NCBI GenBank assembly: GCA_964447765.1
Contig: CAYUTO010000004.1
Location: 93,790-157,789 of the forward strand
Source of the DNA: an uncultured Gammaproteobacteria bacterium
GTDB taxonomy: Bacteria; Patescibacteriota; Patescibacteriia; Magasanikbacterales; UBA922
DNA: 64,000 nucleotides
Direction: 5' to 3'
Positions 9,531 through 64,000 of the stretch are shown one piece after another. The notes below the pieces were generated by a model. It did not search any database, was not told where the DNA came from, and saw only the letters and a list, made by a program, of their open reading frames with translations. The position numbers and the translations under genes were made by a program. How positions within the stretch are numbered: the stretch's first letter is position 1; each line of letters begins with the position of its first letter.

Positions 9531-9602
9531 AAAACTTATCTAGATGTTTGAAAAAATAATGCTTTAACAGACCTAGTGTATCATGCCCTATAAATAAAAA
9601 AA

Positions 9603-9621: not shown

Positions 9622-9646
9622 CCAATTTTATTCTTCGATTATTCTG

Positions 9647-9760
9647 CAACCTCTGTTTTTGGTTCTGCAGCCTCTTCAGTTTCTTCAACTTCTGGAGTTA
9701 CTGGGGTTGTTACCTCTTCAGTAGTCTCATCTGTTTTTTGTTCGTCTGTCATATGTAGTA
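9647..9760 (-). CDS. Putative 37-aa acidic small protein (MTDEQKTDETTEEVTTPVTPEVEETEEAAEPKTEVAE)
   Basis: Short ORF (not in the track) with its own downstream terminator hairpin at 9603-9621; weak RBS. Confidence 0.25.
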
Positions 9761-9886
9761 TATGATTGTCTGTCGTTCCAATAGGATAATCGATATACCA
9801 ATTGAATTGTACAGTTGAGTATGATCTTTACTAACCATACTCCCATTAATAGACTCTGTCAACCAAAAAATAAATGTGCGTACGAA

Positions 9887-12701: not shown

Positions 12702-12744
12702 GATACCCCTTTATTTAAAAAAACTCTTGGTAAAAGCCTAACAC

Positions 12745-12770
12745 AAAACACTGGTATATACCAGTGTTTT
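12745..12770. terminator. Perfect palindrome aaaacactggtatataccagtgtttt (bidirectional terminator-like)
   Basis: 10-bp stem, A-run / T-run on either side. Confidence 0.55.
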
Positions 12771-12782
12771 TGATTTGAACTT

Positions 12783-12959
12783 ATGCCCCAAAAGTCTTAT
12801 TACGTGTACGCTTGCCCACAGCTACAGGATCTCGAAATGCTTTGGGAGGTGCTTGTAATTTTCGAGTATCAAAGGCATGTCCAGGCTTGTCTAATGAATC
12901 AGCCTTCAAACCTTCCTTCTTCAAGGCATCAAGATGATTTTTATACCATTTCTTCATAA
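12783..12959 (-). CDS. Putative 58-aa basic small protein (MKKWYKNHLDALKKEGLKADSLDKPGHAFDTRKL...)
   Basis: ORF below the track cutoff, with a perfect palindromic terminator immediately downstream (12745-12770). Confidence 0.3.
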
Positions 12960-13005
12960 AATTGTATTAAAAACTACGAAAACTAACCTACAATATATAT
13001 CACCA

Positions 13006-14313
13006 TTATCTCGCTTTGTCAAGATTGGCATCAAAGGCTTGTTTAAAAGATGACACAATATACGGAATATCACTAATCATAATAGACTCATTATTATTAA
13101 AGAACCCATTCGTACTCCAATTATTGGTACCAAATACCGCAGTATCATCGTCAACAAGTAACAAATGGTGATGTAAAAAAGAATTAAAATCTTCCTCACC
13201 ATAGACTTCCTGAATTTCAAGATTTCGTTTATGGTCAGTAAAAACCTGAAGATTCTCCAAACGATATAACTCTTTTTGAGAATTCAAAAAAGGAAACACG
13301 GAATCAGTCAAAGCATAATTAGAATCATCAGTGAGTATGGTTGTAGGCACACCCTCCTTACTTTTCTGAAGTATTGTCTGAGCAACAGTAGTATCAGTGA
13401 GATTCCAAATCAATACCTCAATTGTTTTTTTAGTGTCAGCAATGAGACCCAAAAAACGTGTACGCAAACCTACACTATTCGAGGGAGCAGGAGTAAACCA
13501 AATTTCGATATAACCTTCAGGATATCTAAGTAATGCGGCATAGGGATTACGATCAGTGAGAGCACCGCCAGTGTATAAACGATTGAATTCCCTACCAAAT
13601 ACATCAATAATTTCAGGACGAGTTGTTTCTAGCACAAAGCTTGGATCAAATTTCTCTTGGAGAGACGTAAAATTATATGAACCAAAAAAAAGTTTTGCCG
13701 ATACAAAGTTCCGATCAATAAGTATAAACTTATGATGCATCGATCCCCGAGAACTCTCAAAACTAGCATCGACGCGTGAAATATTCTGAGGAGGATTATA
13801 AAAAACCAGATCATGAGTTTCTTTTCGCTTCTCGCTCAAAAGCAACTTCACCGCAACACCACGATTGGCTGCACGATAGAGCGCATCTCGTATCAACGGA
13901 TGATCCATCGAATACACAGCGACCTCGATCTGCACCACTGCTTTGTCTATCGCGTCGATAATAAGTGACGAAAGATGTGTTTGCCCAAAATCAGTATTAA
14001 AATATAATTGTCCTGAAAAAGATTCGAGGATATCAATCGTCTCTCGAGGAGTAAACACCGACGACTGAGAAATGGTGTCCGTCGAAGACACTACTTGATC
14101 CAATGGAAGAGTATATTCTACAACACCCTCATCATGAGAACGCATATAGACAAAAGCAAAAACAAGTATCGATGCAAAAAGTAACAAAAATACAGGGATA
14201 AGCCAAACCAAAAAACGAGGAGTTGTTTCGGGAGAATTAAGAGATGGATCTAATTGTGGTGCCAAGTTCATGTCGTTGAGTGTAGGATAAATAATCATTA
14301 CTATTGTTCGCAA
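13006..14313 (-). CDS. Membrane-anchored phospholipase D family protein (two HKD-like motifs; cardiolipin-synthase-like or PLD nuclease-like)
   Basis: N-terminal TM helix; motif 1 HHKFILID...GSYNFT; motif 2 HHHLLLVDDD...GTNNWS, with His where the canonical Lys would sit; overlaps the upstream gene. Confidence 0.7.
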   Translation of the reverse strand: MRTIVMIIYPTLNDMNLAPQLDPSLNSPETTPRFLVWLIPVFLLLFASILVFAFVYMRSHDEGVVEYTLPLDQVVSSTDTISQSSVFTPRETIDILESFSGQLYFNTDFGQTHLSSLIIDAIDKAVVQIEVAVYSMDHPLIRDALYRAANRGVAVKLLLSEKRKETHDLVFYNPPQNISRVDASFESSRGSMHHKFILIDRNFVSAKLFFGSYNFTSLQEKFDPSFVLETTRPEIIDVFGREFNRLYTGGALTDRNPYAALLRYPEGYIEIWFTPAPSNSVGLRTRFLGLIADTKKTIEVLIWNLTDTTVAQTILQKSKEGVPTTILTDDSNYALTDSVFPFLNSQKELYRLENLQVFTDHKRNLEIQEVYGEEDFNSFLHHHLLLVDDDTAVFGTNNWSTNGFFNNNESIMISDIPYIVSSFKQAFDANLDKAR

Positions 14314-16003
14314 ATACCAACATGATTGAGGTTGGTAGTGCTTGATGTAATATATGTATCATATCAATAATGCGTGGGTATTGTAAATCAAGCCAAAAAT
14401 TATCAATAACCAATACCGGACGATGGGTTACTAGAGAATGCAGTGTGTGCAATGCAAAAGCCTGCAGCGGATTTTTGAGTACCCTATTTGCAGAAGTAGT
14501 ATAATTTCCATCGACTGAAACAAGTTCTACAATAGAAGGATACCGATTCATAATAAGCAGTGCCGAAGCAAATTCTTCCGTAGTAATATCATCTTTCACT
14601 TTACCCATAATACACTCCGCGAGAGTGCGATCTACCCGAAAATTGGGATCAAAAAAATACACATCAGTGCACACATTCTGCCAGCCGACAAACTCAAATC
14701 GTTCAGCATCAACCGTAATTTTTATCGCACGCGGATTATACGCAGCAACACCCGCAAATAATTTTGCCAATGAAGTCTTCCCGGTCATATTGGTACCAAA
14801 AAATAATACACGCTCACCCGGTTTAAAATCAAAACGCATATTTCGATAATACTCTCCTTCTGGAAAAAGCTTGGTCTTGTGACTACGGAAACCAAGTGTT
14901 TTTTCTCTCAGGTGAAAAGCCGTGTCTTTCACATAATTCTTACCTGATTGTACCACCGTCAAAAAAAGGCCCAACCGAGCAGGAAAAAGATATAACCCCA
15001 CTCGTGTAGCTTCGTTCAAGGCACGCGAAAAATAAATAAGTAACAATATAAATAAAAATCGTTCACCAATATGTTCGGTACCTAAAAAAGAAAAAAACGT
15101 TGTGGGGAAAAAATGGCTAAAAATCGAAACAACAATCAAGAAAATAAACACCATTTTAAAACCGAGACGTATCCAAATATCTCGACGTATACGAAAATAT
15201 GAATCAAACCAAACCAGCTTATCAAACTTTTCGAGAATGCTCCGCTCCTGCCCAAACATTTTTAAAAAACTAATATTAGTAGCATTGAAATCTATTTCTC
15301 TAATAATTTGAGAATAGAATGTCACCTCTTGCGAAACATAAAATCGAGATACGAGGTACCCACCAAAAAATAGAAGCACTGATGCAAGAATAAACGCGCC
15401 ACTCACCACAAGAACATGGTAATTACTCACATATGAAATCATGAGTATAATTCCCAAATACATGAGCCAGCGCCAAAATCCAAAAAATGTATTAGAGATA
15501 CCCTGTGTAACCAAAGGAATGTGATACGAAATCTTTGCAATAAGACTCGCGTGTTGTTCTGAGGATGTATGCTGAGGTGAACGACCAAGAAAATTCTTAA
15601 AAATACGACGCCTAATACTATTCGTCAAAAGAACGACAAATGATCGCTCATATTTGATAGCAAAAAAAGAATTGATCAAAAATACACCAATAAGTACTGA
15701 AAACAATAATATAAAATGACTGGAGAGCCATAGGCGAGTCCCGTCTGAAATCTGATCGCGACTAAAAATAATCAACGCAGATTCAATAATACCTTGGGAA
15801 AACAACAAAACCAACAAACCAATAATCAACAAAATATGTTTTTTTGAAAAATCCCGAAGATACTGATAATGATCTTTCGTAAATAAAACCTCCCTCCATT
15901 CACGACTCTCTTTTTTCGCCAACCGAAGAAGCCGAGCCTGCTCCTGCATCTTCTTACTAAAGATATGTGTGACTTTGTGTGTATTATTCTCGACCTCGTC
16001 CAT
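14237..16003 (-). CDS. ABC-exporter-like membrane protein with degenerate nucleotide-binding domain
   Basis: About 6 predicted TM helices followed by a Walker A GTNMTGKTS. The ABC signature is absent and Walker B reads VLVIDN, with the catalytic Glu replaced. The start overlaps the RT stop by about 20 nt. Confidence 0.6.
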   Translation of the reverse strand: MDEVENNTHKVTHIFSKKMQEQARLLRLAKKESREWREVLFTKDHYQYLRDFSKKHILLIIGLLVLLFSQGIIESALIIFSRDQISDGTRLWLSSHFILLFSVLIGVFLINSFFAIKYERSFVVLLTNSIRRRIFKNFLGRSPQHTSSEQHASLIAKISYHIPLVTQGISNTFFGFWRWLMYLGIILMISYVSNYHVLVVSGAFILASVLLFFGGYLVSRFYVSQEVTFYSQIIREIDFNATNISFLKMFGQERSILEKFDKLVWFDSYFRIRRDIWIRLGFKMVFIFLIVVSIFSHFFPTTFFSFLGTEHIGERFLFILLLIYFSRALNEATRVGLYLFPARLGLFLTVVQSGKNYVKDTAFHLREKTLGFRSHKTKLFPEGEYYRNMRFDFKPGERVLFFGTNMTGKTSLAKLFAGVAAYNPRAIKITVDAERFEFVGWQNVCTDVYFFDPNFRVDRTLAECIMGKVKDDITTEEFASALLIMNRYPSIVELVSVDGNYTTSANRVLKNPLQAFALHTLHSLVTHRPVLVIDNFWLDLQYPRIIDMIHILHQALPTSIMLVFANNSNDYLSYTQRHELGTTIRSIS

Positions 16004-17210
16004 AATGAAAATTCTTATAATACTGGTACAGTGAAACAATACCCACGCCCCCCATCACTTCCTTCAACAATCGTCGATGCTGCGGAGAATGTTGTCCATA
16101 GTAAAATTCAGTAAGAATATGAAAAAAATGTTCAGACACTATCCTTATTTGATTCACATCATTCACCTGTGATTTATTCTTGATTATCTCCTGAAATCGA
16201 GTATTAAAATTTGTATAGTTGCTACGCATGATATTTTTGAGAATACGTTTTTTCTTTGCTTCCGACTCATGCTTATAAAGCAGTAAACTCTTCCACTCCG
16301 ATTCAATACGGGCAATAAACCCATCTTCAAGACTAATACGTCCATTCGAAAAGCGATATCCCAAAAAAGAAAAAGTGTCTCTAGCAGACCCAATAAACAG
16401 TTTATCATTATTAAGCTTCAACCCCCTTTCATGGAGTTTAATTTTCATCTCTTTCTCTATAACTTTCAATTTTTCTAAATCCGGATCAAAGAGCGCAAGA
16501 TCATCCCCTACTCGTATATAAAAATCAGACTGACTATCATATCTGAAATCAAGGTCTGAAAGATAGAGATTAGCAAACAAGGCGATTAATGGCACACCTT
16601 GCACAATACCCTGACCGATCGTTTGTATCGAACCACGATCATACACCTGATTGAATATAAAAAGCTTCAATACTTCCACTGTTTCAGTATCCGGAAATAA
16701 TACTTGTAATTTTTCGACTAAATAATCCCGATCAATCAGACTCGAATAATTTTGCAAATCAATCACGAGGCAATGGTCCGTGGTAAAACGCCTGCGATAT
16801 CGACGAGCAAATAAATATGACGCGACATGTGGTGGTCTGCCCGGACGATAGGAAAACAAACGATCAGAAAAACTGCGTTCAAAAACGGGCAATACCACAC
16901 GATAAATTGCCTGTGCCTTGATACGCTCCTTGAGCGTATAAATAAAAATCTCACGAGTCTTGGTAGGATTATTTTTCTTTGGAATACGCAATAAAACAGC
17001 CGGTTCAATGGCTTTGGTATTAATTAACTCATCCTGAATAAGGCTTAGAAGATCATGCGAATTGACCTCATAATCCAATATTTTTTTATGGTCGAGGCCG
17101 TAATATCGAGATTCCTTACTGTCTTTGGCAAATTTTTGAACAATCTCTAGATATGCGGCTTCCAAATTACGCTTGGATATGATTTCTCTAAACATACAAT
17201 ATACAATCAC
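15984..17210 (-). CDS. Free-standing reverse transcriptase (group-II-intron-like/DGR-like RT family, no intron RNA context)
   Basis: RT motif 0 NLEAAY; motifs 1-2 IPKKNNPTKTREIFIYTLKERIKAQAIYRVVLPVFERSFSDRLFSYRPGRPPHVA; motif 3 VIDLQNY; motif 4 QGVPLIALFANLYLSDLD; motif 5 YIRVGDDLALF (catalytic DD); motifs 6-7 LKLNNDKLFI...FSFLGYRF. About 120-aa thumb-like C-terminus. Confidence 0.8.
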   Translation of the reverse strand: MIVYCMFREIISKRNLEAAYLEIVQKFAKDSKESRYYGLDHKKILDYEVNSHDLLSLIQDELINTKAIEPAVLLRIPKKNNPTKTREIFIYTLKERIKAQAIYRVVLPVFERSFSDRLFSYRPGRPPHVASYLFARRYRRRFTTDHCLVIDLQNYSSLIDRDYLVEKLQVLFPDTETVEVLKLFIFNQVYDRGSIQTIGQGIVQGVPLIALFANLYLSDLDFRYDSQSDFYIRVGDDLALFDPDLEKLKVIEKEMKIKLHERGLKLNNDKLFIGSARDTFSFLGYRFSNGRISLEDGFIARIESEWKSLLLYKHESEAKKKRILKNIMRSNYTNFNTRFQEIIKNKSQVNDVNQIRIVSEHFFHILTEFYYGQHSPQHRRLLKEVMGGVGIVSLYQYYKNFHYGRGRE

Positions 17211-18897: not shown

Positions 18898-19003
18898 ATT
18901 GCATATATAAATAAATTAGCATGGTATAAATGTATCATACCAACTTAAAATAAAATATACGCTAAAAAAAATAATGACTTATTTAAGCCATTATTTTCAT
19001 CAG

Positions 19004-19075
19004 CTCCCAGACCTGGATTCGAACCAGGGACCCCCTCGTTAACAGCGAGGTGTTCTACCGCTGAACTATCTGGGA
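19004..19075 (-). tRNA. tRNA-Asn (anticodon GUU)
   Basis: Cloverleaf folds by hand: acceptor TCCCAGA/TCTGGGA, D-stem GTTC/GAAC, anticodon loop CTGTTAA, T-loop TTCGAAT; CCA not encoded. Confidence 0.8.
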
Positions 19076-21628: not shown

Positions 21629-22777
21629 TTACTTTTTAAAATAAGTTGAAAGCGCCCGCAATCCACCTACCGTTTCTTCTTTATTTCCGCCATATGACAA
21701 TCGTACATACCCTTCGCACCCAAACACACTACCAGGTACCGTAGCTACTCCTGCTTCCCTCAAAACTCTCTCCGACCAGAAAACGGAAGATTCAGTCGTT
21801 GCACCAAAAATACTCAAAGGCACAAAAACATATAATCCTGCGACTGGCGCTTCAATTTCCACATGAAATAATTCTGTGATCAAACCAACACACATGTCTC
21901 TCCGAAATTTAAATTCTCGATTAATCAACGGACAAATTTCATCCCGATGCTTGAGTCCTTCCAGTAGTGCCCACTGACTAATAGTAGAGACACCACTCAC
22001 ACTTTGACTAAGCAATGCGGTGACTTTTTTTACTATTTCTACATTACCGGCAAGCATTCCAATACGCCATCCCGTCATACCAAAATTTTTAGAGGCGCTC
22101 TGTATAACATATACGCTATCCTGAAATTCTGTAAACGATCCACATGAGACAAACTCTCCTTCATACACCAGCCCACTATACACTTCATCCGAAATAACAA
22201 TTATCCCCTTCTCTTTTGCCCATGCGAGAATTGAGTACAACTCGTCTCGGGTATACAAAACTCCTGTCGGATTTGAAGCATTATTCAATACTAGCATTTT
22301 AGTCTGCGATGAATAAGTCGCTTCAAGTGCTTCAATATTCACTTTCCAATTATCTTCAGGCTGTGTCTCAACAAATTTGGAAATACCACCAAAAATACCA
22401 ATAATCGCAGGATACGATACCCAATAAGGAGAGATGACAAGTACTTCATCATCTCGCTCAAGAATGGTTTGTAACAAAAAATACAAGGCACTTTTTCCCC
22501 CTGGAGTAATCACCATATTTTGAGAATTATATGAACATCCATATGATTCAGATAACCATGACGCAATTTCAGTTCGTAATTCAGGAATACCAGCAGCAGG
22601 AGGATACGATGTTTTATCCTCATCAATTGATCGCTTTGCCGCATCCCTAATAATGTGAGGAGTTTCAATAACAGGCTCCCCTACACTCAAATTATAGATG
22701 GTCCGACCTTCAGCCTTTAATTTCTGAGCCAGCGCATTAATACTAATTGTTGGAGATTCGGGGATAATAAATGGCAT
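21629..22777 (-). CDS. Pyridoxal-phosphate-dependent aminotransferase, class I/II (aspartate aminotransferase family)
   Basis: Fold-type I aminotransferase pattern with the SASKNFGMTGWRIG lysine motif. Confidence 0.8.
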   Translation of the reverse strand: MPFIIPESPTISINALAQKLKAEGRTIYNLSVGEPVIETPHIIRDAAKRSIDEDKTSYPPAAGIPELRTEIASWLSESYGCSYNSQNMVITPGGKSALYFLLQTILERDDEVLVISPYWVSYPAIIGIFGGISKFVETQPEDNWKVNIEALEATYSSQTKMLVLNNASNPTGVLYTRDELYSILAWAKEKGIIVISDEVYSGLVYEGEFVSCGSFTEFQDSVYVIQSASKNFGMTGWRIGMLAGNVEIVKKVTALLSQSVSGVSTISQWALLEGLKHRDEICPLINREFKFRRDMCVGLITELFHVEIEAPVAGLYVFVPLSIFGATTESSVFWSERVLREAGVATVPGSVFGCEGYVRLSYGGNKEETVGGLRALSTYFKK

Positions 22778-24858: not shown

Positions 24859-24943
24859 TGGTGCCGATGGTGGGACTCGAACCCACAAGCCGCGAAGCAT
24901 GCGCACCTGAAGCGCACGTGTCTACCAATTTCACCACATCGGC
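24859..24943 (-). tRNA. tRNA-Leu (anticodon CAG), class II with long variable arm, CCA encoded
   Basis: Acceptor GCCGATG/CATCGGC, 3-bp D-stem, anticodon loop TTCAGGT, long variable arm, T-stem GTGGG/CCCAC; hand folded. Confidence 0.8.
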
Positions 24944-35069: not shown

Positions 35070-35083
35070 AATCTAAAATAATG

Positions 35084-35157
35084 TAGGCCTAGATGGACTT
35101 GAACCATCGACCCCAACGTTATAAGCGTTGTGCTCTAACCACCTGAGCTATAGGCCC
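35084..35157 (-). tRNA. tRNA-Ile with anticodon UAU (AUA-decoding)
   Basis: 74 nt, hand folded: acceptor GGGCCTA/TAGGCCT, D-stem GCTC/GAGC, anticodon stem CAACG/CGTTG with loop CTTATAA, T-stem GATGG/CCATC; body closely resembles canonical tRNA-Ile(GAU). Confidence 0.7.
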
Positions 35158-36512: not shown

Positions 36513-37805
36513 TTATTCCACACCCAACTCCAGAGGTATTTGAGAGGATAAACCTCTAGATTCATGTTCTTCAAAAACCTTTACTATTCCAAATTCCCCA
36601 TCATACCCAGGGCGGATGTAAATATTTCCAGACCGAACTCGCCCGATCGCTCTCGCAATAGTTTCATTTGTTGCTTTTTGTATCTCTTCAAGCGCTGCAT
36701 CAATCAAAATATGAAATTCAGTTCCGAGATGCGTTATCAATGTTTCATATTCAGTCATTACTTTTTTAGACGACACTCCCATATCATATACATCAGCAAT
36801 AATCTCAGGAAGAGGAACTAATGATTTAAAAGGAATGCGTTTTGTACGTAATGCATAATTTTTTGCTTCATCACTCGTACGGTCCGCGAGTTCATGTACC
36901 CGATATTCCACCCCAATCGTCAAATTTTTTCCACACACTGGACAAATCCCCTTTCGTTTTTTAGTTTCCTCAGGCGCGCAATAAAATGTACAATCACGAT
37001 GCCCATCATAATGATATTTTCCTTCTTCAGGATAAAATTCTATGGTATGCAAAAACTTTTTCTTATCGCCCTCTTCGATGATACGCATTATTTCAGTGTA
37101 GGTTATCTCACTCTCTGAATTGAACTGTAACACATTTGCTTCGCGACCTAGTTTTTGAAGGCTATGCGCATCAGAATTAGAGACAAGGGTAATATTATCA
37201 AGATGACTCCATCGCCAATTCATAAGAGGATCACTCGAAAGCCCTGTTTCAATTGCACGAATATAGGGACTCAAGTCTTCAAACGCCTCATCAAGCGAGG
37301 TATAACCTCCTTTAGAACCAAAAACACCAAACCAGGGAGTCCAAGCATGAGCAGGAATCATTTTCATACGTGGATCAACCTCAAGCATAAGCTCGAGTAT
37401 CTGTTTTGACGTAAGCCCGATAATAGGGCGACCATCAGAGCGAATATTATATCCTCGATCCTCGAGAGCCTGATTAAATTTCTCAGTTACTTCAAGGCTC
37501 GGCGAGAAAATAAGTAAATGAACACGGCGTGTCTGATCATTATGTTTTTTGATTGAAGCAATTTCTGTTCCAATGATAAATCTCGTCTTGCTTTCATGAT
37601 TTTTAAGCTTATACACTCCTTCGGTATCGAGGATAAGCTCACTTTTCATATGGTCAAACCACTTTGGGTGTGTAAAATCACTCGTAACTACGATATCAAT
37701 CCCTCGAATTTCACATGCTTTCGCAATTTTAGGCAATTCCAAATCCTTGGAGCATGCTCGCGAATATTTTGAGTGTGCATGGAGATCAAGAATCTTCTGA
37801 ATCAT
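36513..37805 (-). CDS. PHP-domain protein with CxxC zinc ribbon (endonuclease Q-like)
   Basis: N-terminal LDLHAHSKYS PHP motif, further His/Asp metal ligands, CPVCG zinc-finger; size and layout resemble EndoQ. Confidence 0.5.
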   Translation of the reverse strand: MIQKILDLHAHSKYSRACSKDLELPKIAKACEIRGIDIVVTSDFTHPKWFDHMKSELILDTEGVYKLKNHESKTRFIIGTEIASIKKHNDQTRRVHLLIFSPSLEVTEKFNQALEDRGYNIRSDGRPIIGLTSKQILELMLEVDPRMKMIPAHAWTPWFGVFGSKGGYTSLDEAFEDLSPYIRAIETGLSSDPLMNWRWSHLDNITLVSNSDAHSLQKLGREANVLQFNSESEITYTEIMRIIEEGDKKKFLHTIEFYPEEGKYHYDGHRDCTFYCAPEETKKRKGICPVCGKNLTIGVEYRVHELADRTSDEAKNYALRTKRIPFKSLVPLPEIIADVYDMGVSSKKVMTEYETLITHLGTEFHILIDAALEEIQKATNETIARAIGRVRSGNIYIRPGYDGEFGIVKVFEEHESRGLSSQIPLELGVE

Positions 37806-37843
37806 AAAAATAGAATACGTAGTACGCGGTATTGTAGAAAAAA

Positions 37844-38173
37844 TCAAATAAGTGAAGATAAATGTAGACAAACACGAAAAACTTTATCTACAACAACTTT
37901 AGGATTAGCTGAAACTTGCGTAGGAGAAAAATATAATAATGTATAACCTTGGGGTAGTAACCACTGTTCTTTTTCTGCGCCGAGAGCATAAGATGTATCA
38001 ACGACTTCCACGACCAATTTTAATTCATCACAATAATAATCAACAACATACCGATGATCAAGTTGAACAGACCGTTTGAATCTATATCGCAAACTTCTCG
38101 TATCAAGCTCCGACCACAGCACATCAAGCACCTCTGATGATTGCGGTATATTACTCGATTGAAATATACTCAT
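37844..38173 (-). CDS. DUF559 (Vsr/Mrr-like) endonuclease-domain protein
   Basis: YVVDYYCDELKLVVEVVD motif characteristic of DUF559. Confidence 0.55.
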   Translation of the reverse strand: MSIFQSSNIPQSSEVLDVLWSELDTRSLRYRFKRSVQLDHRYVVDYYCDELKLVVEVVDTSYALGAEKEQWLLPQGYTLLYFSPTQVSANPKVVVDKVFRVCLHLSSLI

Positions 38174-38195: not shown

Positions 38196-38918
38196 CTAAA
38201 TAAATTCAATCTCATTCTCTTCAAGTCTTCGAATACCCACATCATTTACTCGTTCTTCATAGATATGAGCAAGAAGCCCCTGGATTCTTCCCATAAGAAA
38301 AATCATATTACCGATTTTTGCATCCACACCCATATCACACAGAATCGCTGCAAGTGCACCATCGACATTAAGTGGAAGGGGTTTTGAAGAAACTGCATTT
38401 AGTTCTTTTTGAACTACACCAGCAAATTTACAATATTTTCCAAGAATCTTTTGTCTTTTAGCAATATCAAATAAAGTGATTGAACGTGGATCCACTTTAG
38501 TAAATACTTTATGTCCAAACCCAGGCAATCTCACTTTTCTCTCTTTCAAATCTTTAATCTTAAATCTTAAATCTTTTTCCCCTACATTATCATAAAAAAA
38601 CTTCATTGCAGCTTCAACTGCCATACCATGTCGTTCACCGAATCCAAGGATTCCTGCAGCAAGCGATGCATGCACGGGGTTTCCAGCTGAAGCAGAAATA
38701 CGCGCATTAAGAGTGGACGTTGTTCCAGGCCCATGATCAATAACACTGATCAATAGCGCATTAAACATTATTTCTTCATTCTTTTTTGGCAATCGGTTAA
38801 ACAATAATAAAAAAATAGTCGAAACAAATGATTGTTTTTTTATCAAAGACTCAAGAGACTTGCCTCGAATAATTTCTTTATCATCTTTGATCTGAGTAAT
38901 TGACGTTTTAATTTTCAT
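38196..38918 (-). CDS. Citryl-CoA lyase (citrate-synthase-like C-terminal domain of ATP-citrate lyase, stand-alone)
   Basis: Citrate synthase signature GFGHKVFTKVDPR; LNVDG and GRIQGLLAHIYEE motifs align with the ACLY C-terminal domain. Confidence 0.6.
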   Translation of the reverse strand: MKIKTSITQIKDDKEIIRGKSLESLIKKQSFVSTIFLLLFNRLPKKNEEIMFNALLISVIDHGPGTTSTLNARISASAGNPVHASLAAGILGFGERHGMAVEAAMKFFYDNVGEKDLRFKIKDLKERKVRLPGFGHKVFTKVDPRSITLFDIAKRQKILGKYCKFAGVVQKELNAVSSKPLPLNVDGALAAILCDMGVDAKIGNMIFLMGRIQGLLAHIYEERVNDVGIRRLEENEIEFI

Positions 38919-38927
38919 ACAAATAAA

Positions 38928-39824
38928 TTATATCGAAGGTTTAATCAAATTAACCAATTCTTCATAGGTATCTGCAATCATAACGCCAACTTCTTTAAGC
39001 GCACCTTCTTTTTCAAGCGCACCTTTCCCCCGTTCAACAATCGCTCCAGCATGACCCACATTCATTCCCTCAGGAAGAATACTTGCAAACTTACCTCCGA
39101 TATATATTGCGAGTGGTTTGGTATAACCTTTTCTATTAATCAAATCAACGATTTCAAATTCATACGACCCCCCATGCTCACCAAAAATAATTACCACTTT
39201 GGTTTGAACATCAGCCTCAAACAAGGTAAGCAAGTCAGCGTAGGTAGTACCCATCAGCAAATCTCCACCCACATGCACCGCGCTACTTTGACCTAGCCCT
39301 GCTTTCCGTACCTGCCACGAGAGCTCATTGGTCATACCGCCTGAACGGGAAATAATTCCAACAGGGCCTGGAGTAAAAATCTGATCTGCTTGTAATTTTG
39401 GTCCCCCTACTACTCCAATACGCCCCACCCCAGGAGTAATATACCCAAGAGAACTTGGTCCGATAATTCTAATATTTTTTTCTTTTGCAGCAGCGAGGCA
39501 ATATGCTGTATCCTTAATCGGAATACGTTCAACAATTGCATTAATCTGTGGAATCCCTGCTTCAATCCCTTCAAGAATTGCGGCCTTCGCCGCAAATGGA
39601 GGAACAAAAACAGTAGTAACTGAGATATCAGGATGCGTTGCGAGGGCTTCGGAAATATTATTAAAAACAGGAACACCGTCTACCAATTCTCCACCTTTGC
39701 CAGGACGAACACCACCAACTACATTAGTTCCGTACTCTCTCATCGCAGCAGATGCCTTCTGCCCCTCTTTTCCCGTAATCCCTTGAACCAATACTTTAGT
39801 TGTAGACGTAAGTAGTATTCCCAT
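38928..39824 (-). CDS. Succinyl-CoA-synthetase-alpha-like subunit (CoA-binding + CoA-ligase domains; citryl-CoA synthetase/ACL alpha N-terminal part)
   Basis: Rossmann CoA-binding VQGITGKEG and phospho-histidine loop GHAGAIV. Confidence 0.75.
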   Translation of the reverse strand: MGILLTSTTKVLVQGITGKEGQKASAAMREYGTNVVGGVRPGKGGELVDGVPVFNNISEALATHPDISVTTVFVPPFAAKAAILEGIEAGIPQINAIVERIPIKDTAYCLAAAKEKNIRIIGPSSLGYITPGVGRIGVVGGPKLQADQIFTPGPVGIISRSGGMTNELSWQVRKAGLGQSSAVHVGGDLLMGTTYADLLTLFEADVQTKVVIIFGEHGGSYEFEIVDLINRKGYTKPLAIYIGGKFASILPEGMNVGHAGAIVERGKGALEKEGALKEVGVMIADTYEELVNLIKPSI

Positions 39825-39860
39825 ATCTCTTAAATTTGTATTTATCTTTTACCTTCTTTG

Positions 39861-40799
39861 CTACCATCTACCAGAAGCTCCCCCACCACCTGATGACCCT
39901 CCTCCAAACCCACCAAAACCTCCACTTGATTTTCCACTTCCCCCACCAAAACTACCTCCTCCAAACCCACCACTTCGAGGAGGCCAATTATTTTTTCTAT
40001 CTTTTTTTTGTTGCAAAGCTTTTTGCCTAAATTTCTGGAATTCTGGTGATCGAGATACCGCCCAATCGACAACTGCGCCAAATATAGTACCCAACACACC
40101 ACCAATAAAGGCACTTCCTACGATCAAACCCATAAGTGACCCAAACACACCTCCCACAATACCTCCAGCAACAAATGATTTTGATTTGGAAAGCTCGAGT
40201 ACCACTTGAGAAAATATTGCAAAGCCAATAAAACCTACAATTGAAAGAATAATCAAGGCTCCAATCCAGCCCATTACTCCATCGTCATAGGGTGCAATCT
40301 CTGAAGAATACTCCCCTTCTACTGCAGCAACGATCGCAATAGTCGCCTCATCTATTCCTTCACTATAGTTATTCTCCTTAAATGCAGGAATAAGAATATT
40401 ATCGATAATCTGAGAAGATTCGATATCAGTTAGCGCACCTTCGAGCCCATATCCCACCTCAATTCGTACTTCCCGCTCATTAGGCGCAATCAACAGCAGT
40501 ACACCATTATCCTGCTTTGCCTTACCTACTTTCCAATACTCAAATAGCTCGAGAGCATATTCCTCGATAGTAAGGTCTTCAAGAGATGACACAGTAGCCA
40601 CCGAAATCTCGCTCGTAGAAGTCGCTTCAAGCGCACTAAGACGCGCAGTGATGCGCGCCTCAATAGTATCATCGATGATATTAGCTTGGTCTACGACAAA
40701 TCCTGCTGGTGCGGGATACGTCGGAGCTGCATTGGCAGAAGAAAACCATGCGAAGGATAAGAAAATAATAAATGCAAAAGCATATACAATCCGTCGCAT
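39861..40799 (-). CDS. TPM-domain protein (TLP18.3/Psb32/MOLO-1 phosphatase family) with TM helix and Gly-rich tail
   Basis: TPM domain pattern, downstream TM, GGFGGG repeats at the C-terminus; partner of adjacent LemA. Confidence 0.7.
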   Translation of the reverse strand: MRRIVYAFAFIIFLSFAWFSSANAAPTYPAPAGFVVDQANIIDDTIEARITARLSALEATSTSEISVATVSSLEDLTIEEYALELFEYWKVGKAKQDNGVLLLIAPNEREVRIEVGYGLEGALTDIESSQIIDNILIPAFKENNYSEGIDEATIAIVAAVEGEYSSEIAPYDDGVMGWIGALIILSIVGFIGFAIFSQVVLELSKSKSFVAGGIVGGVFGSLMGLIVGSAFIGGVLGTIFGAVVDWAVSRSPEFQKFRQKALQQKKDRKNNWPPRSGGFGGGSFGGGSGKSSGGFGGFGGGSSGGGGASGRW

Positions 40800-40810
40800 A
40801 GGAGAATAGG

Positions 40811-41407
40811 TTATGAACCGATATTAAATTCAACTTTTGGAGCAGTATTTGCACCTTCAGCAGCTTCAAATAAGAGACGTTCTTTATCAAATCCAAACAA
40901 TGAGACAAAGAATACACCAGGAATTCCCTTAGCTTTTACATTGTACGTTCGCACGACTTCATTGTAGCGCATACGCTCAGTTGCAATTCTGTTTTCAGTT
41001 CCTTCAAGTGAAGTCTGTAATGCCATGAAATTTTCATTTGATTTCAAAACAGGGTAATTTTCAGCAACAGCCATCAAGCGAGAAAGCGCTGAAGACAACT
41101 CACCTTGCGCCGCTTGAAATTGCTGGAATAATTGAGGATTACTTAATACCTCTGGAGTTATAGTCAATTGACCTACTTTTGCACGAGCATCCGCAACTCC
41201 CACAAATACCGCCTGTTCTTGTTTTGCAACGGCCTGCACAGTAGAAACCAAATTTGGAATGAGATCATAGCGTCTCTGGTACTGATTCTCTACCTGAGCC
41301 CACGCAGTCGACACGTCTTCGTTCAAACCAACAAACGAGTTATACGTACCCACAAGCCACATTACGATAACCACGAGGATTCCTCCCCCAATAAGCCATG
41401 ACTTCAT
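40811..41407 (-). CDS. LemA family protein
   Basis: N-terminal TM helix + LemA pattern (NSFVGLNEDV...QVENQYQRRYDLIPNLV). Confidence 0.8.
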   Translation of the reverse strand: MKSWLIGGGILVVIVMWLVGTYNSFVGLNEDVSTAWAQVENQYQRRYDLIPNLVSTVQAVAKQEQAVFVGVADARAKVGQLTITPEVLSNPQLFQQFQAAQGELSSALSRLMAVAENYPVLKSNENFMALQTSLEGTENRIATERMRYNEVVRTYNVKAKGIPGVFFVSLFGFDKERLLFEAAEGANTAPKVEFNIGS

Positions 41408-41551
41408 ACAAAGAAGATAAGAATAAAAATATAAATTACTTGACTATATACTATACCATTCATCCAATTTTTGCCAGTTTTCAGGTCTAATCTTGTAAAA
41501 ATGAAAAAAAAATGATATAACTGTGCCATATATTGTTTAATTATATCTTTT

Positions 41552-41914
41552 ATGATGACGAAGCGTTACCACTGGATTTTCGACGCAGAAAATATACCAA
41601 ATGATGTGGGAACTAACACCGTATTGGTCGAAAAAGCCCTGAGAGATATCGCCGGGTTATGTGGTATGACCATTGTAGGCGGACCACTCGTACTCAAAGG
41701 AGTACCTGAAAATCCTGGTGTTACAGGAATTTGCGTGGTTGATTTTTCTCACATATCAATACACACCTTCTCAAATCCAGGCGAAGCATGTATTGATGTG
41801 TTCTCTTGCAAACCTTTTGATCCGGAACTCATCCACGACTATCTCAAAAAAACATTTCAAGTAACGGACGAAGATGCGGTATACGTTGAAGTAAAATACC
41901 CGGGCGAAAAATAA
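41552..41914 (+). CDS. speH: S-adenosylmethionine decarboxylase proenzyme (class 1 SpeH/SpeD type)
   Basis: Pyruvoyl-forming FSHISIHTF serine motif, about 120 aa. Confidence 0.7.
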   Translation: MMTKRYHWIFDAENIPNDVGTNTVLVEKALRDIAGLCGMTIVGGPLVLKGVPENPGVTGICVVDFSHISIHTFSNPGEACIDVFSCKPFDPELIHDYLKKTFQVTDEDAVYVEVKYPGEK

Positions 41915-41915
41915 T

Positions 41916-43061
41916 CTAGACAACCATAGTCGCAAGAATACCAGCTGTTTCAGACATGCTGGTTTCTTTTCCAAATAATTTCATATTGAGATTATTCCGT
42001 TCTGCGCACTCACGCATTAATTCCATTCCCTCTACTTCATAAGGACCAGCTCGACGTACCACGATTGGATATGTCGGTTTTATCTGATCAAGAGCATCTA
42101 CAATTCCATTAAACGTTTCTTGCACATTAGTAAAATTTGCGACCCCACCTGCAATCCACAAACCTTTTAGTCCTGGCTTTGATAATACGATTTTTGCCAA
42201 ATCTCTCACTTTTTCTCGAGGGGGATTCCCTGAATATTCGGTATAATTTGCAGGCTTCAATCCAGTTTTGATAAGCGCATCCATATTTGCAATACTCGCT
42301 CCCCCGCCTGAAAATAAAATCGCAATATCCCCATCCATCTCAATATATTTTCCCGCAGTACCTCGATAATAATCCTCACCAGCATCAATTGCCGTAACTT
42401 CTTTTTCTCTATCAGTTGGCAATCTTCCCATCATAGTGCGCGCTTCAAAATTTTTCCATGTTTCATGGCGATAAAATGCATCGTCATCAAGTGCTACTTT
42501 TGCGTCAGCAGCAATCCACTTGTTACTAGTAGTTTTGACCAATGGATTAATTTCCACTTGGCGTGCATCTTCCACTAGAAAACAATTCCATAATTCCTGT
42601 GCAAACGGAATATCAGCAAAATCTAATTTCTCATTTCGTATATCGAGCCTTTCTTTTCGAATATCTTTTTCCCCTACCTCCTCAATATCTACTCCACCCT
42701 TTGTAGAATAAACTAAAACAGGCTGGCGAATCTGACTATCATAACTGATCGACAAATAATGTTCTTCTGCAATTGCCAATTTTTCTTCAATTCGAATAGC
42801 TGCAACATATTGCCCTCGGACCTGCATCTGAAATATCTCTTCACATGCATGCACTACCTCTTCGACTGAAAAACAAAATCGTATCGCATTATTTTTACCC
42901 CGTTTCCCGGATAATACTTGAGCTTTTACTACAACTTCTTCTACCCCGAGTGCGGTATACGCATCGAGAACATTCTCTCCACGACGGACCACAATACCTT
43001 TGGGTACTGCAATTCCATGTGTTGCAAATAATTCTTTTCCTTCAAATTCATAGAGATTCAT
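41916..43061 (-). CDS. Succinyl-CoA-synthetase-beta-like ATP-grasp subunit (citryl-CoA synthetase/ACL beta)
   Basis: ATP-grasp N-terminus (MNLYEFEGKELF...KAQVLSGKRGK) and CoA-ligase C-terminal domain. Confidence 0.7.
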   Translation of the reverse strand: MNLYEFEGKELFATHGIAVPKGIVVRRGENVLDAYTALGVEEVVVKAQVLSGKRGKNNAIRFCFSVEEVVHACEEIFQMQVRGQYVAAIRIEEKLAIAEEHYLSISYDSQIRQPVLVYSTKGGVDIEEVGEKDIRKERLDIRNEKLDFADIPFAQELWNCFLVEDARQVEINPLVKTTSNKWIAADAKVALDDDAFYRHETWKNFEARTMMGRLPTDREKEVTAIDAGEDYYRGTAGKYIEMDGDIAILFSGGGASIANMDALIKTGLKPANYTEYSGNPPREKVRDLAKIVLSKPGLKGLWIAGGVANFTNVQETFNGIVDALDQIKPTYPIVVRRAGPYEVEGMELMRECAERNNLNMKLFGKETSMSETAGILATMVV

Positions 43062-48286: not shown

Positions 48287-49495
48287 TTAAGAAATTATTC
48301 CATACCTCTTCCCCAACTTTACAAAAGCTGCGACCAAGGTATCGATATGTTCCTTGGTATGGATTGCAGAAATCTGTACTCGAATTCTTGCCTTACCCAT
48401 TGGAACTACAGGGTAGCTGAATCCAATTACATAAATTCCTTCATCCATCATATCCTGCGCCATATCACTCGCTATACGACCATCACCAAGCATGATCGGT
48501 ACAATTGGATGAACTGACTCGGAAACCACAAAACCAGCACCTGACATCTGTTCACGAAAATAATAAGTATTCTCCCATAATGTCTCTCGTAATTCAGGAT
48601 GCGCATCAATAAAATCAAGTACAAACATGGTAACTGATGCAACCACCAGAGGTAGCGTGTTGGTAAATAATGTCGTTCGTGCACGCTGATGTAATACATC
48701 AATAACTTCTTTCGAACCAGCAATCACACCTCCATTTGCACCACCCAATGCCTTACCGAATGTGGTCGTAATAATATCCACCCGATCAAGTACCCCACAT
48801 GCCTCAACCGTTCCTCGACCAGTATCCCCCATAAATCCAGTAGCATGAGAATCATCAACAACCACAAAGGCATTATATTTCTCCGCCAAATCACACACTT
48901 CTCGAAGTGGAGCAATGTGACCATCCATACTAAACACCCCATCAGTCACTACACATCGCATACGATTACTCTGAGTCTCCTTCAGTCGCTCCTCAAGATC
49001 AACCATATCCATGTGCTTATACACGTGTCGTTCAGCTTTACACAGGCGTACACCATCAATAATACTCGCATGATTGAGTTCATCAGAAATAATTGCATCA
49101 GCATCAGTGAGTAGTGTTGCAAAAACAGCCTCATTCGCATCCCAACACGACGTAAATACGATAGCAGCTTCTTGATGTAAAAATGCTGCTACTTTTTTTT
49201 CAAGATCAACATGCACCTGATGTGTACCGCAGATAAATCGAACCGAAGACATGCCATAACCACATGCTTCAAGCGCCTCTTTTCCAACATCTACCAATTC
49301 CTGTCGTCCTGCAAGACCCAAATAATTATTTGCACAAAAATTAATCAAAGTTTTCCCATCAGCCTGAATCACACTCCCTTGTCGAGAAGTAATAATACGT
49401 TGTTTTTTAAACAAGCCAGCATTAGATATCTCATCAAGCATACCCTTTGCTGCTGTACGTACAAGTTGATTCATATAATTAATGTTGAATATCAA
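48287..49495 (-). CDS. kbl: Glycine C-acetyltransferase (2-amino-3-ketobutyrate CoA ligase) / 8-amino-7-oxononanoate synthase family
   Basis: Alpha-oxoamine synthase pattern with PLP lysine in TFGKALGG; overlaps and precedes the threonine dehydrogenase gene. Confidence 0.75.
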   Translation of the reverse strand: MIFNINYMNQLVRTAAKGMLDEISNAGLFKKQRIITSRQGSVIQADGKTLINFCANNYLGLAGRQELVDVGKEALEACGYGMSSVRFICGTHQVHVDLEKKVAAFLHQEAAIVFTSCWDANEAVFATLLTDADAIISDELNHASIIDGVRLCKAERHVYKHMDMVDLEERLKETQSNRMRCVVTDGVFSMDGHIAPLREVCDLAEKYNAFVVVDDSHATGFMGDTGRGTVEACGVLDRVDIITTTFGKALGGANGGVIAGSKEVIDVLHQRARTTLFTNTLPLVVASVTMFVLDFIDAHPELRETLWENTYYFREQMSGAGFVVSESVHPIVPIMLGDGRIASDMAQDMMDEGIYVIGFSYPVVPMGKARIRVQISAIHTKEHIDTLVAAFVKLGKRYGIIS

Positions 49496-50657
49496 AAAGT
49501 ATTTTCGGATGCACTTTCATGCGTTCTTCCATTAATTCAGGTGTATAGTGTGAAAGCGGTAAAATCGTTCCATCACCCTCTTTAAGAATATGTTTCCAAA
49601 TCGCTTCCTGGATACCATTGGTGTTATCCGATAATACTCGCTGAGCAATCTGCCAAGTTTTGAAAATCTGACGACCAATAACATTATGCAACGTAAAACC
49701 TTTTACGATCATGCGAGAAAAATTGGGAATAATAAAATCTCCATCTTTAATACCAAATAAAATAATATTTCCACCGTAACGTGTTGCTTCAATGCAATTA
49801 TTCACTGAGGAATTAAATCCAGCCATCTCAAGACTCACGTCCACTCCCTTTCCATAGGTCAAAGCCTTGATTTGTTCAATCACCGAAACATCAATATCAT
49901 AACTATTTTTTTTCTGAACGTTTGGATCAACTAGAATGGTCTCATGTGCTCCAAGTTCTCGAGCAATCGTAAGGTTATGAGGATTCGTATCAATCGCAAT
50001 TACTTTTGCTGCGCCAAAATGTTTTGCCAAAAGTACTGCAAACAAACCAATTTGACCACAACCAAAAATTGCAACACGACTACCGCGCATATCAACTTTG
50101 GTAAGTGCATGCACCGCATTACCAAATGGATCATAAATCGCACAAATTTCTGGTCGCACACGATTGAAGTCGACTGCCCACAAATTTTTTGCAGGAATCT
50201 TCACATACTCTGCAAAAATCCCATCAATACTAATTCCCAAAATCGCCTGATCCTGACACACCTCTTCTTCCCCGAGCCGACATTGGTAACATTTACCACA
50301 CGTTACATGAGAATCTCCAGAAACCATACTTCCTACCCGAATATCATAGGTCGTTGTTTCAACCAGTGAACCTACTTCTACCACTTCACCCACAAACTCA
50401 TGCCCAAGAACACGAAGTGTCTTACCTTCTTTTACAAGCGCACCCTTAAACATTTCAGTAAAAGCACTTCTGGTCCAAATACCACGATCAGAACCGCACA
50501 CACCCGCATAAGATACTTTGACAATAACCGAAAGCGCATCACGCACATCTTTCTTTTCATCAAGTTCGGGTCGAGCAATCTGTCTCTTGAAAAATCCCCG
50601 AGACGTTTCCCATCCTTCTTGTGCCAGGTCGAGTGTAAGTGCATTAATAGTATTCAT
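49479..50657 (-). CDS. tdh: L-threonine 3-dehydrogenase (Zn-dependent MDR family)
   Basis: GVCGSD and GHEFVGEVVEVG zinc motifs, Rossmann GxGxxG; paired with kbl. Confidence 0.8.
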   Translation of the reverse strand: MNTINALTLDLAQEGWETSRGFFKRQIARPELDEKKDVRDALSVIVKVSYAGVCGSDRGIWTRSAFTEMFKGALVKEGKTLRVLGHEFVGEVVEVGSLVETTTYDIRVGSMVSGDSHVTCGKCYQCRLGEEEVCQDQAILGISIDGIFAEYVKIPAKNLWAVDFNRVRPEICAIYDPFGNAVHALTKVDMRGSRVAIFGCGQIGLFAVLLAKHFGAAKVIAIDTNPHNLTIARELGAHETILVDPNVQKKNSYDIDVSVIEQIKALTYGKGVDVSLEMAGFNSSVNNCIEATRYGGNIILFGIKDGDFIIPNFSRMIVKGFTLHNVIGRQIFKTWQIAQRVLSDNTNGIQEAIWKHILKEGDGTILPLSHYTPELMEERMKVHPKILFDIQH

Positions 50658-50667
50658 ACGAAAAAAA

Positions 50668-51426
50668 TTATAAACTCCGAGCAGTCTGCAAATCTTCAGC
50701 AGTATTAATCCCAATAGCTTCTTTGGGTTCAATTGAGATTGAAGAAATTTGAACTCCTTCGTCAATTCCCATTCCAATTAAATCAGTAAGATAATATTCT
50801 TTCTGCGAATTTTCATTCTTAAGATTTTTAAGTGACTTCCAGAGCCATGATGCTTCAAAGCACCATACGGAAGGATTCAGTTCGAGAATACCAAGCTCAT
50901 CTTCTGTAGCATCTTTTTTTTCCACAATCCGCGCAATGTGTCCATTAACACCCCTCACAATTCTACCAAATCCCACGAAAGCCTGATTTTCATTCTCAAA
51001 ATGAGGAACCGTAACCGTCATCATGGTAATCGTATTTTTTCTCTCAATATGCCGAGCCAAAAGGCGTTTAATTGATTCCGCGGAAACAAAGGGCATATCA
51101 CCATTAAGAAATACTACATGTGACACACGGTCTGTGAGTATTGTTTCTGCCATTGAAGCTGCATGCCCGGTGCCCAGCTGTTCACTTTGCACCACATACT
51201 GAGCACGATCACCTAGATGATCCTGTACCATGGTGTGTTTTGCAGATACTACAATAAGTGGTTTTCCTATTCCCACTTCTTCTACATGCTGCACCACATG
51301 TTCAACCAATGGTTTTTGATTAAGCTCGTGCATCATCTTTGGAAGTGAACTTTTCATACGTTTACCATCTCCCGCTGCAAGGATTACTACTCCAACCTTA
51401 TCTGTTTTTTTGTTCGATGTATCCAT
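50668..51426 (-). CDS. Sugar-phosphate nucleotidyltransferase (GlmU N-terminal-domain-like)
   Basis: VVILAAGDGKRM nucleotidyltransferase motif. Confidence 0.6.
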   Translation of the reverse strand: MDTSNKKTDKVGVVILAAGDGKRMKSSLPKMMHELNQKPLVEHVVQHVEEVGIGKPLIVVSAKHTMVQDHLGDRAQYVVQSEQLGTGHAASMAETILTDRVSHVVFLNGDMPFVSAESIKRLLARHIERKNTITMMTVTVPHFENENQAFVGFGRIVRGVNGHIARIVEKKDATEDELGILELNPSVWCFEASWLWKSLKNLKNENSQKEYYLTDLIGMGIDEGVQISSISIEPKEAIGINTAEDLQTARSL

Positions 51427-60688: not shown

Positions 60689-60805
60689 AATCTAGGCGCC
60701 GACCTACTCTCGCCTTGCGACTACCATTGGCGCTGAAGGGCTTAACTGCCGTGTTCGGGATGGGAACGGGTGGACCCCCTTCGCAAAAAGCACCTAGATT
60801 CTATA
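60689..60805 (-). rRNA. rrf: 5S ribosomal RNA
   Basis: Reverse complement reads ...gtccacccgttcccatcccgaacacggcagttaagccc...ggtagtcgcaaggcgagagtaggtcggcgcc with pairing 5'/3' ends. Confidence 0.75.
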
Positions 60806-60874
60806 CTCAGTTATAATTTTGAAGTAATAAACACAATAATTGCAGTAGCATTCTTCGAAACACAACTCTGTGTT

Positions 60875-64000
<3,126 letters not shown>

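Follow-up and report, generated by a model that had tools for sequence, protein, structure and literature searches.

A putative three-polypeptide citryl-CoA synthetase/citryl-CoA lyase system in Magasanikbacteria

The 64,000-nucleotide stretch of DNA analyzed here, hereafter the window (positions 93,790 to 157,789 of contig CAYUTO010000004.1, assembly GCA_964447765.1), encodes a SucC-like beta subunit, a SucD-like alpha subunit and a small stand-alone lyase, which probably make up a two-enzyme, three-polypeptide system for ATP-dependent citrate cleavage of the citryl-CoA synthetase/citryl-CoA lyase (CCS/CCL) type. Judged by its sequences, the system belongs to CCS/CCL and not to the ATP-citrate lyases (ACL), because the alpha subunit and the CCL were found as two separate proteins and not as a fusion. 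An earlier sequence-only reading of this DNA had proposed the same two enzymes, and this proposal is supported by the domain composition, the matches to structures in the PDB, the trees and the active-site residues. Within Magasanikbacteria the system is, moreover, ancestral and passed on by vertical inheritance, and it is present in several other lineages of the candidate phyla radiation (CPR). Homology, domains, residues, operon linkage and lineage conservation are shown here, and its substrates, activity and physiological direction are inferred; the most likely function would be the reversible, ATP-dependent conversion of citrate into acetyl-CoA and oxaloacetate.

The three genes and the identity of their products

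All three open reading frames (ORFs) that had been claimed for the system are intact in the ORF list of the window (Table 1). All motifs pointed out earlier were recovered as well: the translation of the 240-aa protein contains GFGERHG, GFGHKVFTKVDPR, LNVDG and GRIQGLLAHIYEE, and that of the 298-aa protein contains GHAGA. The stop codon of the alpha gene (TAA) and the ATG of the lyase are separated by a spacer of just 9 nt. The beta gene is situated upstream, with 2,091 nt between its end and the alpha start, and begins 5 nt after the stop of a pseudouridine synthase gene. An exact-sequence cluster look-up attached public names to none of the window's own proteins.

The 240-aa protein can be assigned to the CCLs and not to the citrate synthases, as had been suggested. 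Its best PDB match is 6hxp_A, the citryl-CoA lyase of Hydrogenobacter thermophilus (E=6.8e-53, 183 bits), which it covers over its full length (residues 4-239 versus 6-244), while no citrate synthase scores above 66 bits and the CCL modules of ACL score about 60-63 bits. It passes the NCBIfam model NF004869 'citryl-CoA lyase' (241 > 212), whereas the citrate synthase models of the same collection score only 25-92 bits against cut-offs of 330-620. The Pfam match to Citrate_synt (E=4.6e-39) is confined to profile positions 167-353 of 357, i.e. the C-terminal part. The lyase residues H62, H97, H136, R145, D186, F207, R211 and R231 correspond to H229, H264, H305, R314, D362, F383, R387 and R407 of the E. 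coli citrate synthase, the eight active-site residues being used as listed in PMC13147460. Seven of these eight are invariant in 55 of 55 Magasanik-like lyase homologues, and R231 is found in 53 of them and is gapped in the remaining two. In neighbour-joining (NJ) trees, the stand-alone CCLs, analyzed with or without the ACL module, are split from the citrate synthases with 99-100% bootstrap support. An identity as citrate synthase was rejected on the basis of the length (240 aa versus about 370-430 aa for full-length enzymes), the partial profile and the failure at every citrate synthase cut-off. An ACL-type CCL module was rejected as well, given the much higher score against the stand-alone CCL, the retention of His97, which is replaced by Phe in AclA of Chlorobium limicola (PRFGGA), and the joining of the CPR lyase with the ACL module in only 2% of the NJ bootstraps.

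The beta subunit combines an ATP-grasp_2 domain (PF08442; E=5e-37, 127.8 bits) with a Citrate_bind domain (PF16114, the citrate-binding domain of ATP citrate lyase; E=4.5e-31, 108.2 bits), and Ligase_CoA (PF00549) gave no Pfam match on it. Among PDB entries it scores best against 6hxq_B, the large subunit of the biochemically characterized H. thermophilus CCS (208 bits), followed by Thermus SucC (139.5) and C. limicola AclB (139), and it stays under both SucC cut-offs of NCBIfam (228 < 370). The CPR beta, ACL and CcsA sequences form one clade with 100% bootstrap support in the NJ tree, and every SucC falls outside. These three results agree with the earlier view that the protein is not an ordinary SucC. 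At the residue level, G278, N309, T311 and R337 align with G309, N346, T348 and R379 of human ACL (ACLY; numbering checked against 3mwd_A). No variation occurs at these positions among 45 Magasanik-like homologues, and the other CPR sequences, ACL and CcsA keep the residues as well, apart from a single CcsA-like copy from Nitrospirae in which Ser replaces the equivalent of N346. In SucC proteins, the counterparts of N346, T348 and R379 are R, D and V/L.

The alpha subunit shows Pfam matches to CoA_binding (E=1e-20), Ligase_CoA (E=3e-10) and Succ_CoA_lig. For all three proteins, the domain matches thus lie far outside what chance would give. Its highest PDB scores are those against two archaeal succinyl-CoA synthetase (SCS) alpha chains (235 and 215 bits), followed by CcsB in third place (203) and AclA (140); it stays below the SucD cut-offs of NCBIfam (264 < 336). 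However, three signatures are common to this protein, CcsB and AclA and occur in no SucD examined: an insertion after GxxGG (GGPKLQAD), a further insertion of 3 residues directly ahead of the phosphohistidine loop, and SGG instead of SGT. The NJ tree groups alpha with CcsB, AclA and a deltaproteobacterial relative with 98% bootstrap support, which decreases to 62% when the deltaproteobacterial relative is left out, and a specific pairing with AclA appears in 2% of the bootstraps. Despite the higher overall score against archaeal SCS alpha, the signatures and the clade thus argue for a CcsB/AclA-type subunit, in agreement with the sequence-only reading. According to sequence and alignments, H258 in NVGHAGAIV is the predicted phosphohistidine, while E216 corresponds to SucD Glu208 and ACLY E599.

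An alternative explanation would be an ordinary SucCD pair beside a truncated or degenerate citrate synthase gene. This explanation could refer to the JGI annotation of several beta homologues as 'succinyl-CoA synthetase beta subunit', to the best NCBIfam matches of alpha and beta, which are the SucD and SucC models, and to the SCS alpha chains at the top of the PDB matches of alpha. However, both subunits stay below the SucC/SucD cut-offs, beta carries Citrate_bind and no Ligase_CoA, and the genuine SucCD paralogues form clades of their own with 98-100% bootstrap support. These controls came from E. coli and from Nitrospirae loci, which hold both a CcsAB-like and a SucCD-like pair in the same genome. 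Moreover, the length of 240 aa and the full active site of the lyase are kept in at least 55 species, and the protein matches a characterized CCL over its full length. Plain SucCD plus a citrate synthase fragment was therefore rejected on cut-offs, trees, indels and residues; it is effectively refuted and we regard it as extremely improbable.

Several points weigh against the assignment to CCS/CCL. The trees are distance-based NJ trees with bootstraps and contain few reference sequences, which were transcribed from HMMER alignments, those of ACL being taken from PDB alignments. The overall similarity of alpha is higher to archaeal SCS alpha than to CcsB, neither alpha nor beta passes an NCBIfam cut-off, and CCS-subunit models are absent among the NCBIfam matches of both. 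The citrate site of beta was defined by G309, N346, T348 and R379 of ACLY, which reportedly contact citrate in the ACLY structure 3MWD. An oppositely oriented gene separates beta from alpha and CCL in this genome, so that beta has lost its co-transcription with them. Finally, a citrate transporter and a downstream tricarboxylic acid (TCA) cycle enzyme were not seen within the 64-kb window.

Table 1. Features of the window and their positions (position 1 is the first nucleotide of the window)
Feature	Position	Strand	Description
beta (large) subunit, putative CCS/ACL-type ligase	41916-43061	-	381 aa, SucC-like; N-terminal ATP-grasp, C-terminal citrate-binding domain
alpha (small) subunit	38928-39824	-	298 aa, SucD-like; CoA-binding and phosphohistidine domain, NVGHAGAIV
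stand-alone citryl-CoA lyase (CCL), predicted	38196-38918	-	240 aa; separate polypeptide
AdoMet-decarboxylase (AdoMetDC)	41552-41914	+	between beta and alpha; Pfam
LemA	40811-41407	-	between beta and alpha; Pfam
TPM-domain gene	39861-40799	-	between beta and alpha; Pfam
insertion splitting the operon	39861-41914	mixed	TPM, LemA and AdoMetDC; outside the enzyme system
DUF559 (endonuclease-like)	37844-38173	-	109 aa, between lyase and TIGR00375 gene
TIGR00375/MJ0043_C PHP-family protein	36513-37871	-	about 430-450 aa, CxxC motif
Kbl (glycine C-acetyltransferase) and overlapping Tdh-like gene	48287-50777	-
aspartate-aminotransferase-like gene	21629-22777
reverse transcriptase	15984-17210	-
P-loop protein	14237-16039	-	600 aa, overlaps reverse transcriptase
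tRNA-Asn(GTT)	19003-19075
tRNA-Leu(CAG)	24859-24943
tRNA-Ile, anticodon TAT (UAU)	35083-35157	-
5S rRNA	60691-60797	-
23S rRNA	60872-64000	-	cut by the window end

Distribution, gene order and relation to ATP-citrate lyase

The closest named homologues of the lyase (52-86% identity) belong almost exclusively to Candidatus Magasanikbacteria in NCBI. The presence of homologues with this name at up to 86% identity supports the CPR-type genome assumed in the sequence-only reading. In a locus scan in which each GTDB species was represented by a single genome, about 58 CPR loci were recovered, most of them from Magasanikbacteria and others from Uhrbacteria, Minisyncoccota, Curtissbacteria and the 'Patescibacteria group'. 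They were followed by non-CPR loci from Aquificales/Aquificaceae, Nitrospirae/Leptospirillum, one planctomycete and one deltaproteobacterium. The gene order beta-alpha-CCL on one strand was found in about 50 CPR loci, roughly half of which are strictly contiguous or overlapping, and alpha and CCL are separate ORFs in all CPR loci examined. Furthermore, a wider order comprising GlmS, HAD, CofD-like, GNAT, RluA, beta-alpha-CCL, TIGR00375/PHP-family, HD protein, RluD, Gmk and L19 is kept in 20-36 loci, hence the system was inherited vertically within the class. Dozens of metagenome-assembled genome (MAG) records titled 'uncultured Gammaproteobacteria bacterium' (loci L003, L004, L007, L013 and many others) carry the operon as well; they are syntenic with Magasanikbacteria at 50-83% identity, and the record titles look like placeholder mislabels of bulk MAG submissions.

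The sequence-only reading had placed the beta gene 'nearby', 2 kb away from its partners. The position is correct, but the separation is due to a secondary insertion into an ancestrally contiguous operon, because LemA and TPM lie between beta and alpha in no locus other than that of the window and those of its five closest relatives (L003-L007), and the inserts found elsewhere are unrelated. The opposite-strand AdoMetDC gene inside the operon occurs only in the window, L005 and L006, while other CPR loci have different inserts of 0.4-3 kb at either operon junction. The counts of promoter-like sites (21 versus 16.4 +/- 4.1 in shuffles) and terminator-like sites (3 versus 3.7) between 37700 and 43900 are both at the level of shuffled sequences; no claim on transcription units is made. 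A PADLOC scan of LemA, TPM and DUF559 gave zero matches, so that the insertion represents no recognized defence island. The operon inserts were also considered as metabolic partners and rejected in this role, since they are heterogeneous across the CPR loci and none is widely shared.

Apart from the enzymes themselves, the operon is an unusual hotspot for gene insertion. In different species it is repeatedly interrupted (L009, L014, L018, L019, L024, L033, L038-L041, L043-L045 and others), and the inserts include small membrane proteins, a 743-aa protein, HAD, NUDIX-like, GNAT and methyltransferase genes, among others. The DUF559 gene downstream of the lyase is shared only with the closest relatives (L004-L007) and resembles a further small insertion. 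The TIGR00375 gene occurs in 36 CPR loci and directly follows the lyase in many CPR genomes, an adjacency that may reflect conserved gene order only.

The conserved gene order also suggests a relation to ACL that differs from two independent enzymes. Possibly, the three polypeptides assemble into a non-covalent, ACL-like holoenzyme with a CCL tetramer as core, in which citryl-CoA is channelled, and which would be either a pre-fusion or a secondarily split ACL; we regard this as a tentative alternative. The order beta-alpha-CCL is the one that aclB-aclA would show if aclA were divided between its domains, the spacer between alpha and CCL is minimal here, and the two genes are adjacent or overlapping in many CPR loci. 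The CPR beta joins the three ACL beta references in 86% of the NJ bootstraps, versus 5% with CcsA from Aquificae and Nitrospirae, and its motifs NYxEYSG and ANFT are of the ACL type, the corresponding ones in CcsA being DIGG and ANNT. A Magasanikbacteria sequence was, moreover, filed under ACL in a 2022 preprint (10.1101/2022.10.25.513756). However, the lyase is far nearer to the stand-alone CCL of Aquificae than to the ACL module and retains the histidine that is Phe in C. limicola AclA. The alpha subunit has no C-terminal linker extension and is rarely grouped specifically with AclA. The raw similarity of beta to CcsA is equal to or higher than that to ACL, its N-terminal domain is SucC/CcsA-like, and its NJ placement could be a long-branch effect. 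It might nevertheless be, although we consider it doubtful, that the CPR system is a living representative of the stage just before ACL arose, with an ACL-type beta and with alpha encoded right ahead of a CCL that is still separate and still similar to citrate synthase, possibly as an ACL-like complex.

Possible function and other genes of the window

For the CCS/CCL-type system, a reaction sequence can be proposed. ATP bound in the ATP-grasp domain of beta would lead to phosphorylation of His258 of alpha, the citrate held in the C-terminal domain of beta would be activated and citryl-CoA formed, and the separate lyase would then cleave citryl-CoA into acetyl-CoA and oxaloacetate via the His/His/Asp machinery of citrate synthases. 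The system could provide acetyl-CoA and oxaloacetate from scavenged citrate or run backwards with a yield of ATP, either direction being possible because the reactions are close to equilibrium (CCS -5.9 +/- 3.9, CCL -2.1 +/- 3.9 and ACL overall -8.0 kJ/mol; PMC13147460). The window contains a possible user of the products, an aspartate-aminotransferase-like gene that could convert oxaloacetate to aspartate, but the direction is not proved by it. Likewise, GlmS and a small GNAT protein adjoin the operon and may be related to its products or substrates, which is no proof of direction either.

The same enzymes working in the opposite direction would form citryl-CoA from acetyl-CoA and oxaloacetate and release citrate and ATP, which would mean substrate-level phosphorylation and CoA recycling in a fermentative CPR cell. 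The acetyl-CoA could come from threonine. Kbl (566 bits, cut-off 460) is encoded 5 kb from beta and overlaps a threonine-3-dehydrogenase-like (Tdh-like) gene, which does not reach its cut-off and is extended by about 80 aa at the N-terminus; together they represent a route from threonine to glycine and acetyl-CoA. ACL is reportedly ATP-forming in Desulfobacter postgatei, which would also favor this direction. Both the CCS and the CCL step are near equilibrium (PMC13147460), but the overall reaction is about 8 kJ/mol uphill under standard 1 mM conditions. Moreover, the pair of Kbl and Tdh-like genes is found within 10 kb of the operon in just 2 of about 59 CPR loci (L008 and L042), and none of the sequence features indicates a direction. 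Net citrate synthesis is hence regarded as the less likely use of the system, although it is a serious one.

A different pair of acid and acyl-CoA, e.g. a hydroxy-di- or tricarboxylate or 2-methylcitrate/propionyl-CoA, would be another conceivable use of the ligase and lyase. Specificity varies in this superfamily, which contains uncharacterized branches, and the beta protein of the deltaproteobacterial locus lacks the citrate-site residues. However, all four citrate-site equivalents of the CPR beta match those of ACL and CCS and are invariant in CPR, and the lyase keeps every His, Arg, Asp and Phe of the citrate synthase active site listed in PMC13147460. A non-citrate substrate is accordingly improbable, and citrate cleavage by a CCS/CCL-type system is favored. 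In the deltaproteobacterial locus itself (L068, a MAG; approximately 7485-10756), the beta-alpha-CCL cluster encodes a beta subunit in which N, T and R are replaced by A, Q and I, and its alpha subunit is devoid of the second insertion; the cluster may thus represent a related ligase/lyase pair of different substrate.

Beyond the operon, the window holds housekeeping genes and the 23S and 5S rRNA genes. In the 23S match, model positions 132-2925 extend over 3,129 nt, which is about 335 nt more than the model and suggests an insertion or intron. Such insertions and introns are often reported for rRNA genes of CPR bacteria. ORFs listed at 61101-63599 inside the rRNA are spurious. The reverse transcriptase found its best PADLOC matches in a generic reverse transcriptase model and defence-associated DRT classes (RT_UG26 118 bits, RT_UG17 91 bits), and the overlapping P-loop protein shows weak matches to ABC_tran and mad8. 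This possible defence module (14237-17210) is adjoined by a 1.5-kb stretch almost without ORFs (12702-14236). Finally, the tRNA-Ile with anticodon UAU reads AUA directly, with no lysidine-modified CAU tRNA involved.

Prior knowledge, significance and comparison with known systems

The CCS/CCL system is partly visible in public resources. The NCBI pipeline already names the lyase 'citryl-CoA lyase' in Magasanikbacteria. Public names of the beta protein comprise 'hypothetical protein', 'ATP-grasp domain-containing protein' and 'ATP citrate lyase citrate-binding domain-containing protein', and JGI uses 'succinyl-CoA synthetase beta subunit' or 'citryl-CoA synthetase large subunit'. The inconsistency of these names gives our assignment an immediate value for annotation. 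In a bioRxiv preprint from 2022 (10.1101/2022.10.25.513756), some of the CPR and DPANN sequences with an SCS or citrate synthase annotation were reported to be monophyletic with CCS or CCL. Candidatus Magasanikbacteria MSU75130.1 appears as ACL in Supplemental Table 1 of this preprint, with CCS/CCL, SCS, citrate synthase and isocitrate dehydrogenase marked absent, and the table gives BLAST matches in various MAGs for malate dehydrogenase, aconitase, fumarase, oxoglutarate:ferredoxin oxidoreductase and fumarate reductase. Moreover, a groundwater study from 2025 found aclAB enriched in Saccharimonadia MAGs. The statement of the sequence-only reading that the system is unexpected in a reduced CPR genome was thus overstated, because the system is a conserved feature of Magasanikbacteria and other CPR, part of it already bears a name at NCBI and JGI, and the preprint contains it. 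The literature search found no paper on the three-gene operon, its class-wide conservation, its residue-level features or its biochemistry. The novelty is hence modest, as databases and one preprint had already partly recognized the system; the ACL-like motifs of beta together with the gene order, which hint at a pre-fusion ACL, may be new.

Since descriptions of CPR bacteria portray them as fermentative symbionts that have no TCA cycle, it is poorly understood how they obtain C4 acids and acetyl-CoA, the latter being required, for instance, when amino sugars are acetylated in cell-wall synthesis. The operon represents a concrete candidate for the use of scavenged citrate or, in reverse, for a gain of ATP. 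Furthermore, the order beta-alpha-CCL, the 9-nt spacer and the ACL-type beta motifs are what would be expected just before the ACL fusion and could anchor studies of this transition. If the system indeed represents such a pre-fusion stage, CPR bacteria would permit a direct experimental test of the fusion from CCS/CCL to ACL and of the relationship between citrate synthase and ACL, and a conserved acetyl-CoA/oxaloacetate node, or an ATP-yielding citrate synthesis, would exist in organisms thought to be without a TCA cycle. Collectively, the operon is a useful and testable lead for CPR carbon metabolism and the origin of ACL, and unsurprising at the level of annotation.

Among the known systems, the three-polypeptide architecture resembles CcsA/CcsB plus Ccl of H. 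thermophilus and other Aquificaceae and of Leptospirillum/Nitrospirae (6HXQ, 6HXP). The lyase is 40-43% identical to CCLs of Aquificae over the full length, with the same catalytic residues. Beta resembles CcsA in the combination of ATP-grasp and citrate-binding domain with the N/T/R/G residues of the citrate site, and alpha resembles CcsB in GHAGA and in the same two insertions relative to SucD. In contrast, beta is shorter than CcsA (381 vs 429 aa) and has the ACL-type local motifs EYSG and ANFT, and alpha has no C-terminal extension (298 vs 353 aa in CcsB). The CPR genes form one beta-alpha-CCL operon, whereas the Aquificae loci are without CCS genes within 10 kb of ccl, and ccsAB is situated 2-3 kb from ccl in Nitrospirae. 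The host differs as well, being a probably non-autotrophic CPR bacterium with a small genome and not an autotroph using the reductive TCA cycle.

Compared with AclB/AclA of C. limicola (6HXJ) and Methanosaeta concilii (6HXI) and with ACLY, the CPR system would share the overall chemistry, and it has the aclB-aclA gene order, the motifs of the citrate-binding domain of beta and the insertion pattern of alpha. It differs from ACL in the separation of alpha and CCL by stop codon and spacer, AclA being fused, and in a CCL that shows only distant similarity to the ACL module (about 60 bits) and keeps the His that C. limicola AclA has lost to Phe. With SucCD it has the fold family and presumably the phosphohistidine mechanism in common, alpha being highly similar overall to archaeal SCS alpha, but the acid-binding loop of beta reads N/T/R versus R/D/V-L, Citrate_bind takes the place of Ligase_CoA, and the sequences form a separate clade. 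Finally, the lyase shares the catalytic His/His/Asp and the active-site Arg residues with citrate synthases (GltA, type II), but its 240 aa cover only the C-terminal part of their profile and score far under their cut-offs.

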